In this document: piece after piece, positions 12,001 to 14,551 of the stretch
Position numbering within the stretch: position 1 is the stretch's first letter
How the letters are laid out: each line of letters opens with the position of its first letter
Source: Elusimicrobiota bacterium
GTDB lineage: Bacteria; Elusimicrobiota; Elusimicrobia; Elusimicrobiales; UBA9959
Reading direction: 5' to 3'
Assembly: GCA_037137395.1 (NCBI GenBank)
Contig: JBAXKK010000066.1
Location: forward strand, 1-14,551
Length of the DNA: 14,551 nucleotides
Position numbers: made by a program

Positions 12001-14551
12001 TCTACGACCCCGACCGTCAAAGCGATAGAGGCAAGAGACGCCATCGCCAATGGGGCGGAAGAGATAGATATGGTCATCAATATCGGCGCCTTAAAATCCG
12101 GGAATGATCTTATGGTGCTTGATGATATAAAGGCCGTGCGCGAGGCTACCCGGGGCCGGGTGCTGAAAGTTATCATTGAAACTTCATACCTTACCAAGGA
12201 TGAAAAGATCCGCGCCTGTAAAATGGCAAAGCAGGCCGGCGCCGATTTTGTCAAAACGTCTACGGGCTTTGGCTCCGGCGGCGCGACTGTGGATGATGTG
12301 GCTCTCATGCGCGAAGTTGTGGGTCCCGATATGGGCGTTAAAGCTTCGGGCGGAATAAAGGACGCAAAAGCGGCACAGGATCTTATAAAGGCCGGCGCCA
12401 CGCGGTTGGGTACAAGCGCCAGCATCGCCATAGTTTCCGGCGGGCAGGCCGTGAAAGGACAGTATTAAAAATAGGGTATAGGGTATAGGGTACAGGGTAC
12501 AGGGTAAGGAACTCCTTCCCTAGCCCCTGGCCCCTAACCCCTGAACCCTTTCATAAGGAGAATATATGTCAGAACCGAAAGAAGCGTTGGGAATGATCGA
12601 GACCAAGGGGTTTATCGGCATGATAGAATCTTCGGACGCCATGGCTAAAGCGGCTAACGTGCGGCTCATCGGTTACGAGAAGATCGGCTCCGGATACGTG
12701 ACCACGTTATGCGTTGGCGAGGTCGGCGCTGTGCGCGCGGCTGTGGAAGCGGGCGCGGCTGCCGCCCAGAAAGTCGGGGAACTTGTCGGGATGCACGTGA
12801 TTCCCAGGCCCCACGACGATCTGGATAAATATATAGCCAAAATATCCGTGAAAGCTTAAATTATAGCGCTAGCGCTATAATTTAAGCTGCCATAAGCCGT
12901 AAGCTTTAGGCCATAGGCAGAACGGTAAATAATTTACAGTAGTTGTTTTCTGCATACGGCCTATGGCGCGGCTGTTTCAGCCGCTTATGGAGATAGTTGT
13001 ATCTAAAATTATTATGCTCACAAAAGGCGATATTGCCGATGTTATTTCCGCGTACCTGGCGCGCGCCTCCGCCGGCGCGGCTGCGGAGACTCGCGGCCGA
13101 ATTCCCTCCAGGGCATCTAAACCTTTACCTAAGCGCGTATTTATAACCGACTGGGAGATGAAGCGCCTGGTGAAGCCCGGCCAGAAATCTGTAAGCGTTC
13201 CGGCCGGCGCTATAATCAGCCCGCTCTCGCTGGACTGGCTGGACTACGACGGCGTTAAAGTTGTTCGCGGGTGAACTGGGGGATTTGTATGGCGGATTTA
13301 GGTGTAATAGAAGGATTTTACGGCGAGCCGTGGAGCTGGGAAGAGCGGGCGGATTATGCGGCTTTCCTCAAACGCCATGGTTTCTCTTTTTATATCTACG
13401 CGCCCAAGGCCGACGGCTTCATGCGCAAAAAATGGCGCGAGCCTTTCCCCGAAGATCTGGAAAAGAATCTTACCATCCTCTCCGCGCGATGCCGCGCCTC
13501 CGGTGTAGAGTTCGGAGTCGGCTTCAGCCCTTACGAGATATACCTCTCGCCTTTTAACGACGGGGTCAAAAGCCTGCTTCAGCGCCGCATAGACGTCTTC
13601 AACCGCATCGGCGTGGACAAGTTCGGCCTGCTGATGGACGACATGAAGGGGGACTCCCCTGAACTGGCCTCGCGCCAGATAGAGATAGTCAATTGGGTGG
13701 CCGCGCGGACCACAGCCAAACAGATTATTTTCTGCCCGACTTATTATTCACTGGATCCGGTGCTTGAAAAACTTTTCGGCAAAAAGCCGGAAGGGTATCT
13801 GGAAACGCTCGGCAGGGAGCTTGACCCCAAGGTTCGTCTTTTCTGGACCGGCGAATTGGTCTGCTCCAAAAGTTACAGCGCCGAGCATCTCCGCGCGACG
13901 GCGGGCCTGCTGGGCCGCAAGCCTTTTCTCTGGGATAATTATCCGGTTAACGACGGGCCCCGGATGTGCAAGTTCCTGCATCTGCGGCCGATGACCGGCC
14001 GCCCCGCCGGCATCGGGCCATGGTTGTCAGGTCACGCGGTGAACCCTATGAACCAGCCGACATTGTCCAGGATCTCCCTCCTGACCCTGAAAGCCAGTTA
14101 TGAGCGTGGGGAAGCGTATAATCCCGCTGAGGCGTTCCTTGAGTCGGCCCAAACCGTGACCTGCGTGGAACTGGCGCGCCAGCTTGAGAAAAACCTGTCC
14201 GATTTTATGGACCGCGGCCTGGACCTCCTTCCCACGGAAGAGCGCGCCGTGCTAAAAGAGGCGTACAGGCCCTATCTTGATTCGCGCGAAGGCCAGACGG
14301 CCAAAGCGGCGCGGGAAGTGATAGACTGGCTGGACGACCGCTATACAGTCACTAAAGACCTCTTCCTGACGCAATGAATTAAAGTGGAATTAAAGTGACA
14401 CACAACTTAATTGTTGCCAATTAAGTTGTGTGTCACTTTAATTATGTGTCACCTTGTCACTTTAATTATGTGTCACCTTATTTATTACCTTATTTAAAAT
14501 ATTGCTTGATTGTGATTATGGATTTCTGCTATATATATCATAGGGAAGTGG

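Follow-up and report, generated by a model that had tools for sequence, protein, structure and literature searches.

The spacer and its neighbours

The stretch of DNA analysed here, hereafter the window, comprises the 14,551 nucleotides of contig JBAXKK010000066.1 from an Elusimicrobiota bacterium and holds, at 12469–12565, the spacer between a deoC-family aldolase gene and a shell protein gene (Table 1). The nearest titled relatives of the aldolase are Elusimicrobia records. On folding, the spacer gives a single unbranched, imperfect hairpin of 28 bp (12473–12549) at −44.6 kcal/mol (z −3.6), the energy at which the first-pass annotation had proposed a hairpin here, and none of 200 dinucleotide shuffles folds equally well. 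A fold at least as good is obtained for the minus strand (−49.7 kcal/mol). TRF assigns a period of 7 to the array in the 5′ arm and detects a weaker complementary array in the 3′ arm. A search of Rfam with positions 5900–14551 returned five weak miRNA matches, all far below the gathering threshold, and none at 12469–12565. No RNA data set is listed as containing positions 7000–14400.

The spacer is not alone. Eight of the nine window spacers of at least 40 nt outfold at least 97 of 100 shuffles, with units that differ between spacers, and five of the nine pass a strict test for periodic hairpins. The stretch at 14376–14500 belongs to a non-periodic palindrome family, one of those that flank Y1 transposase genes.

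Table 1. The 12469–12565 spacer with its flanking genes, and the other elements of the window
Feature	Position	Strand	Evidence
Host gene upstream of the spacer, part of a bacterial microcompartment operon: N-terminally extended aldolase of the deoC family	11467–12468	+	TIGR00126 above cut-off
5′ arm: 5.1 copies of a purine-rich heptamer in tandem, beginning 3 nt past the deoC stop	12471–12506	+	TRF, folding
Apical stem-loop with 12-nt palindromic core	12506–12517	+	folding, core search in periodic spacers
3′ arm: array of pyrimidine-rich heptamers that complements the 5′ arm imperfectly (consensus units agree at 5/7)	12518–12549	+	TRF, folding
Unpaired tail outside the stem, with Shine-Dalgarno-like site of the next gene	12550–12565	+	sequence, folding
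Downstream host gene: EutM-like microcompartment shell protein	12566–12859	+	profile search
Element, 35 bp, unit other than that of the 12471–12506 array; different-unit element here in the sister species, 63% identity	7347–7430	+	folding, sister alignment
Element separating the vertex and aldehyde dehydrogenase genes; without its 3′ arm in the sister species	7764–7860	+	folding, sister alignment
Longest element, 56 bp; unit family is that of the arms of the PF05635 gene on contig C76	9277–9417	+	folding, array comparison
Element whose array starts within the final codons of the preceding shell gene	9976–10043	+	TRF, folding
Element of the commonest unit family; other family instead in the sister species, 70% identity	10520–10615	+	folding, sister alignment
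Branched element of the commonest unit family (as 10520–10615), with small GC-rich side hairpin	11009–11174	+	folding
Element of the commonest unit family (as 10520–10615) behind the shell gene, with a short perfect palindrome ahead of it at the stop	12903–12967	+	folding

Periodic hairpins across the genome

Genes were called with our own caller (2214 genes, 87% coding; some small genes are missed), and the null for the genome-wide tests consisted of dinucleotide shuffles, which are stricter than the mononucleotide shuffles used in the first-pass annotation. Under this null the 7-nt, in part 8-nt, periodicity earlier described for intergenic DNA is reproduced: self-identity at lags 7/14/21 amounts to 0.319/0.306/0.292 in 800 co-directional spacers, 0.296/0.289/0.266 in 97 convergent spacers and 0.275/0.270/0.265 in 133 divergent spacers, as compared to about 0.25–0.26 in the shuffles (0.255 at lag 7 for the co-directional set), and coding DNA has a 3-nt period only. 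Stems of at least 25 bp occur in 176 of 885 co-directional spacers versus 95 after shuffling, and stems of at least 30 bp in 100 versus 41. The strict test for 7/8-periodic hairpins is passed by 124/885 co-directional, 8/108 convergent and 2/112 divergent spacers and by a single sequence among all shuffles, in line with the earlier claim that repeats pair in opposite orientation to form long hairpins. The bias towards co-directional junctions likewise holds, clearly so against divergent spacers (p = 3e-5) and less so against convergent ones (p = 0.07). When periodic tracts are counted in place of complete hairpins, 293 of 1529 co-directional junctions are positive as compared to 8 of 1259 shuffled spacers, so that about one fifth of these junctions carry sequence that is not to be taken for promoters, terminators or riboswitches.

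Hairpin anatomy and strand polarity

The 124 strict hairpins, 109 of period 7 and 15 of period 8, have their stems placed much as first reported, starting a median 5 nt past the stop codon and ending a median 20 nt before the next start. Helices measure mostly 2–6 bp, 1×1 and 2×2 loops dominate and loop sequences show no preference. The first-pass picture of 4–6-bp helices with a loop every seven bases thus describes a real tendency, with unpaired positions recurring at lag 7 at 0.34 versus about 0.19–0.22 at lags 3–5 and 9–12, and is no strict rule. Both arms carry the identical unit in only 11 of the 109 period-7 hairpins; usually they carry different variants of a unit, which is enough to produce periodic loops. 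The arms are complementary in 52 of 63 purine-linker-pyrimidine units. Equality of arm length was discarded as evidence, as it follows from the definition of a stem.

Start positions this close to the stop, and G-runs in the 12471–12506 unit resembling the in vitro G4 formers of PMC4692102, speak for intrinsic terminators or for G-quadruplex or protein-binding sites in the DNA. Such an identity is nevertheless very improbable: a T-run follows only 4 of the 124 stems, terminator-like matches at 6800–14551 are as numerous as in shuffles (9 versus 8.9), most unit families lack three-G runs (as do most of the 70 distinct 5′ units found among the 124 hairpins) and the elements sit within tightly linked operons.

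The purine-rich arm comes first in 108 of the 124 hairpins, as had been noted, and a role in the mRNA had been derived from this polarity. The observation stands and the derivation does not, for on the antisense strand the purine-rich arm again comes first in 100 of 114 cases: the reverse complement of a purine-arm/pyrimidine-arm hairpin keeps its polarity, which makes the latter uninformative on the mRNA. Sense folds are 3.0 kcal/mol better than antisense folds, with shuffles of the same spacers giving 2.1, and G·U oppositions outnumber A·C 369 to 259, as G·G do C·C 72 to 45. These strand-specific signals (folding energy, G·U excess) are largely explained by G skew.

Turnover between related species

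For the sister species the comparison covered 512 kb of some 2.6 Mb, with 250 orthologous junctions at a four-fold divergence of 0.21. Periodic tracts were present in both species at 21 junctions, in this genome alone at 26 and in the sister alone at 10, elements being often missing or replaced at orthologous junctions. Several junctions (7343 and 10508 in the window; C118_0, C123_4 and C90_4) hold an element of another unit in the sister at 59–71% identity, cases identified by low identity and reading of the alignments listed, as automatic same/different-unit calls are noisy and label near-identical pairs different. Some elements are nested in these alignments, and sister spacers differ in length by 7, 14 or 21 nt. 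At the deoC-shell junction itself, 13 of 39 distinct related sequences are periodic, with several units, 15 of 39 measure at most 28 nt and the others hold unrelated palindromes.

These data bear on the proposal that the hairpins are mRNA elements selected by the host, with stems that stabilise the upstream cistron or steer RNase III cuts and thereby set protein ratios in the microcompartment, nuo and ribosomal-protein operons. In keeping with this, the stems lie between stop and ribosome-binding site, the stem extending over the latter in no more than 6 of 51 cases, both RNase III (rnc) and Rho are encoded in the genome, and colinear elements change at 0.117 substitutions per site, below the 0.195–0.21 of four-fold sites. 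However, ordinary spacers change at the same rate (0.127) and are more often colinear with the sister species (45/59 versus 23/56 elements). Furthermore, in the eight best-kept elements paired, internal-loop and apical positions change equally (0.059, 0.064 and 0.058), own arms hardly outpair same-family arms from other loci (−1.01 versus −0.96, p 0.08), the polarity is strand-neutral, and most relatives run the same operons without hairpins, witness the short deoC-shell junctions above and 27 other nuoL loci, none of which has a periodic flank. Covariation was found in one element inherited in five genomes, with double changes at 11 of 36 pairs, a number attained by 1 in 500 shuffles and compared with 2–6 in slid controls; this fits host selection too, and repeated units together with arm-to-arm copying can mimic it. 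Selection on pairing is not clearly shown, and we consider a host-selected function unlikely.

Shared parts and copies

The first-pass statement that sequence differs from spacer to spacer is correct in that many units occur, and incomplete in that the units fall into a few large, data-derived families and that parts are shared between loci. Thus, the 12-nt palindromic apex core, at up to two mismatches, recurs in 29 of 324 periodic spacers where 3.5 are expected (non-periodic spacers: 11 of 654, 6 expected), and a hybrid element with a common, non-periodic linker is found in 15 copies in both orientations. Together, shared apex and hybrid element show copying within the genome. A close copy elsewhere in the genome (80% identity over 70% of the length) exists for only 9 of 134 elements, and therefore there has been no recent burst. 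An all-against-all comparison of linkers put 0 of 58 above threshold by a method that merges the hybrid linkers into tracts.

Opposite-facing hybrid copies bracket nuoL and a gene on contig C49, and a third pair brackets a gene on C22; such facing pairs make up 3 of 389 consecutive spacer pairs versus 0 of 3548 random pairs (p 0.001). The nuoL bracket is a 110-base inverted repeat, the two copies of which are each other's best match, and is absent from the 27 other nuoL loci. Its retention in the sister species can be counted in favour of host selection; the bracket is compatible with selection for pairing in the RNA as well as with conversion of one inverted copy by the other in the DNA. Pairing of half-elements across genes, considered as a general rule, was rejected, as it is rare here (the same 3/389) and was seen at none of 244 pairs in other loci.

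REP, BIME and REPIN sequences are extragenic palindromes of operons, close to stop codons and with fast turnover, and they are short, uniform and flank a RAYT transposase. The heptamer elements share the extragenic, palindromic habit and the co-directional junctions, and with four PF01797 genes the genome encodes Y1 (RAYT-like) transposases that might move them. However, the palindromes beside the Y1 genes are different ones and not periodic, and the heptamer elements are periodic, diverse rather than uniform, with near-identical copies for no more than the 9 of 134, and flank a gene that is not a transposase. That they are REP/REPIN-type elements is therefore hardly credible.

In purely local mutation, slippage would grow 7-nt units within existing stems or terminators and template switching would copy one arm into the other. 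Slippage has been put forward as the source of excess heptamers (Mrazek 2007, cited in PMC4692102 and PMC4679880), the 7-, 14- and 21-nt length differences agree with it, loops are mostly locus-specific, close copies few, and arm-to-arm copying could yield the covariation. Left unexplained are the shared linkers of the 15 hybrid copies in both orientations and the shared apex, the occupation of a junction by an entire element with a different unit in the sister species, and the association, described below, with a single protein family and with clades within it, by reason of which we regard local mutation as a decidedly unlikely sole cause.

The PF05635 gene and its heptamer arms

The element at 12469–12565 itself is without a gene. 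A single intact TIGR02436/PF05635 gene is present in the genome, at C76:12003–12350 (PF05635 E 9e-37, PDB 2GSC E 1e-30), encoding a four-helix-bundle homologue of XCC0516/2GSC in which we saw no domain of a transposase, recombinase or RT. The gene sits between two aminomutase subunit genes, inside inverted arrays of the unit family found at 9279–9415 in the window, with the upstream array encoding the last codons and the stop of the host gene. In the congener G004 the gene is absent and the aminomutase junction is a plain 20 nt with the same ribosome-binding site; no target duplication is evident by eye at this junction. Between the two sister species the gene differs at 12 synonymous and 1 non-synonymous of 107 codons, which indicates that it is under purifying selection. 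A C-terminal PF05635 remnant lies behind alaS, adjoining an 8-mer hairpin, in both species, and is the only case found of gene remnants in the loops of empty elements. A second full cassette of the sister falls within an assembly gap of this genome.

For the relatives, the analysis compared this one whole genome with 10–20 kb samples of 39 others. Among 51 stand-alone PF05635 genes or fragments (contig-edge and fused rows excluded), 35 have periodic tracts on both sides and 47 on at least one side, as compared to 18 and 64 of 231 control small genes, and fragments retain their arms. The upstream arm is the more purine-rich in 32 of the 35 bracketed genes, the same polarity as in the empty hairpins, and bracketing arms pair with their own partner at −1.15 kcal/mol/nt versus −0.49 when swapped. 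The genes are co-directional with 77 of 80 called neighbours. GxxExxY (TIGR04256) and DUF559 were examined as alternative cargo and rejected, with one match below cut-off and one without periodic arms.

The nearest protein relative resides in another genome in 40 of 43 cases and carries the same arm unit, at no more than one difference, in 9 of 43, versus a background of 2%. Across genera arm unit and protein clade are correlated (Mantel rho −0.25, p 0.003, a significance overstated by the kinship of the genomes). Close relatives of the protein occur at different junctions, and at one junction the cassettes of different genomes are unrelated to each other. All cassette copies seen lie between operon genes; the 23S gene of this genome is absent from the assembly.

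Presence of the gene also goes along with periodicity elsewhere. Ribosomal-operon junctions are periodic in 48 of 249 cases in 14 genomes with a PF05635 gene (rho 0.77, the co-occurrence being overstated as the genomes are kin) and in 1 of 153 in genomes without it (1/94 in six family members, 0/59 in five gut-type relatives), after exclusion of 15 of 40 regions with fewer than ten called junctions. G015 (0/24) and G026 (0/12) have no periodic junctions in the sampled region despite carrying the gene. Junctions that are filled in relatives hold a periodic tract here in 7 of 14 cases versus 394 of 1529 overall, a weak association (p 0.045). No PF05635 gene was found in the microcompartment loci L001–L030 and L093–L252 or in the 40 ribosomal regions.

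Origin of the hairpins

Taken together, the hairpins are probably the gene-less relics of an intervening-sequence-like PF05635 cassette and not a host regulatory device. This reading is supported by independent tests: full and empty forms share arms and polarity, and insertion occurred at a clean junction; arms move with the gene between sites and between genera, and genes decay to remnants; empty forms are quickly gained, lost, nested and replaced. What the data show is an element of two arms which settles between stop codon and ribosome-binding site, travels together with the PF05635 gene, sheds it and afterwards turns over fast. In the scheme that we propose, empty forms may arise through gene loss and through copying or recombination of arms, slippage would alter the copy number and recombination would reshape the arms, with the periodic internal loops a likely by-product of arms that carry different variants of one unit. 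By analogy with rRNA intervening sequences, transcribed copies would form the hairpin and could become substrates of RNase III, and any effects on host mRNA would be mostly incidental and tolerated. The weak points of the relic reading are the ratio of full to empty forms, one intact gene to about 300 periodic spacers, the scarcity of close copies in the genome, the absence of a full cassette from the microcompartment loci named above and the marginal 7 of 14 at orthologous junctions; moreover, arms and gene may co-travel by linkage alone.

A further-reaching version, speculative and on present data improbable, is that of an RNA-borne mobile system, in which the stem would be excised by RNase III, an Avd-like pentamer would bind the heptamer word of its clade, and a DNA copy of the RNA would enter transcribed operons at their stop-to-start junctions. 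Empty hairpins would then be non-autonomous passengers, and arm pairs could enclose host cistrons such as nuoL as excisable units. If true, the excess of bacterial heptamer repeats and the origin of ORF-bearing rRNA intervening sequences would be explained together.

Comparison with known systems

Tandem 7- or 8-nt arrays in intergenic DNA have been described as cyanobacterial STRR heptamers, in Beggiatoaceae (PMC4679880) and in Geobacter, where hepta- and octamer arrays are paired on opposite strands (PMC2700814). In the available parts of these papers they figure as direct repeats or regulator sites, and no cassette or cargo gene is proposed. As for the protein, Avd of diversity-generating retroelements (PF22296) is homologous to PF05635/2GSC (PMC10053308) and shares its fold family, the C76 protein being a weak bAvd match below cut-off (E 6e-7). 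Unlike Avd, the cassettes have no adjoining RT, template or variable repeat, and the single RT of the genome lies in a separate DGR-like locus on contig C52. Between them, PMC4679880, PMC2700814, PMC2408588, PMC10053308 and bioRxiv 2024.02.27.582315 report heptamer arrays from further phyla, the homology with Avd and IVP genes scattered among rRNA insertions.

The closest published counterpart of the hairpins comes from Xanthomonas campestris and X. citri, with 70 and 75 repeats of G-rich heptamers, about four units per arm, in convergent inverted pairs (Rehm et al. 2015, PMC4692102, which treats Nostoc heptamers too). These pairs lie between groES and groEL, atpA and atpG, ddl and ftsQ, and lepA and lepB (Table S2), with the G-rich arm right after the stop and the C-rich arm right before the next start, are rare between divergent genes and vary between close species; G4s were proposed and, in the available text, function was left open. 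Convergent inverted pairs of 7-nt units within one spacer, co-directional junctions, a purine arm at the stop and rarity between divergent genes are all found here too. In Xanthomonas, however, there is one G-rich, G4-able unit family; here the families are many, the majority of them do not form G4s, and 8-mers, hybrids and nested copies occur besides. We class the hairpins as a variant, with multiple unit families, of this published repeat class; by themselves they are not new. Both this publication and the enclosure of a PF05635 gene by the same arms had escaped the first-pass annotation.

Repeat no. 15 of Table S2 in PMC4692102 has no partner and overlaps the start of XCC0516, the 2GSC gene; in the available main text XCC0516 and four-helix proteins are not mentioned. 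The ORF-bearing intervening sequences of 23S genes (Coxiella, Leptospira; S23p/PF05635; PMC4990558, as far as available) carry the gene in sense orientation in the loop of a terminal-inverted-repeat stem, with a variable number of heptamers before the gene, sporadic distribution and gene decay, and in Coxiella burnetii RNase III cuts at the first of the repeats. Gene in the loop, inverted heptamer repeats and sense orientation recur in the C76 copy and its relatives. The difference is that the elements here occupy junctions between genes on mRNA and mostly lack the gene, and that excision by RNase III, demonstrated there (PMC4990558), is predicted here. Among the open-licence literature matches listed, no paper joins heptamer hairpins at mRNA junctions to PF05635, with pieces of the connection in the accessible portions of PMC4692102 (Table S2) and PMC4990558. 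Two long-standing puzzles, why heptamer repeats are over-represented in bacterial spacers and what the 'intervening-sequence protein' does, appear to be one object. Both become testable through a protein, the word that it is a candidate to bind, and known junctions that occur filled, empty or without the element.

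Results and Discussion

An inverted repeat roughly 110 nt long brackets the gene nuoL; it lies in the two flanking spacers, which are each other's best matches among the 885 co-directional spacers of the genome. Pairing across the gene is favored over local folding of the flanks by 106 kcal/mol and, in the sister species, by 87 kcal/mol, with one linker pair altered on both sides between the two species. The repeat was not found in 27 other family loci, nor in two other genomes compared, G002 and the congener G004. Two weaker enclosures resembling that of nuoL were also observed (see the table).

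Coordinates of the features discussed
Feature	Location	Strand	Content
Surface-protein gene and neighbor	window 2-6940		large Ig-repeat surface protein, then PorV/PorQ-family gene
Microcompartment operon	window 7055-13274		two EutM-like shell genes, PduT-like shell gene, three vertex genes, aldehyde dehydrogenase, rpiB, deoC
Palindrome	window 14376-14500		tandem partial copies
nuoL inverted repeat	C21:25546-27766		gene and both flanking spacers
Weaker enclosure	C49:10824-12032
Weaker enclosure	C22:16797-17480
Hybrid element	C49:10669-10696		14 further spacers
DGR-like locus	C52:11795-14836		Avd-like gene (13674-13970, minus), repeat of upstream gene's end, reverse transcriptase (RT)
Structured element	C10:24807-24994		190 nt
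PF05635 fusion	L032:541-1896	-	relative
PF05635 fusion	L092:1346-3298	+	relative

The window's microcompartment operon is kept in many Elusimicrobiales loci. At the deoC-shell junction of G004 (locus L004) the spacer measures 22 nt. It retains the last part of the 5' arm known from the window, directly followed by the ribosome-binding site, the form that would be expected after deletion between two short identical words.

A hybrid element, in which an arm of one family is joined through a shared linker to an arm of another and which is incapable of self-folding, is present 15 times in intergenic DNA, with 10 copies in sense orientation, 3 in antisense and 2 of no assigned orientation. Two relatives carry in-frame fusions of PF05635, the domain of the arm-bracketed cassette gene, with a PorV/UPF0164-like barrel, and these may represent read-through of a cassette into the adjoining gene. 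The RT of the locus resembling a diversity-generating retroelement (DGR), whose Avd protein is homologous to PF05635, is the only one in the genome.

The structured intergenic element on C10 returns 48 BLAST hits, 27 of them at least 150 nt long, and bears no relation to the heptamer arrays. The palindrome in the window is perfect and nonperiodic. Because an 18-mer from it has 35 genome matches and the same family flanks a Y1 (RAYT-like) transposase on C47, it is REP-like.
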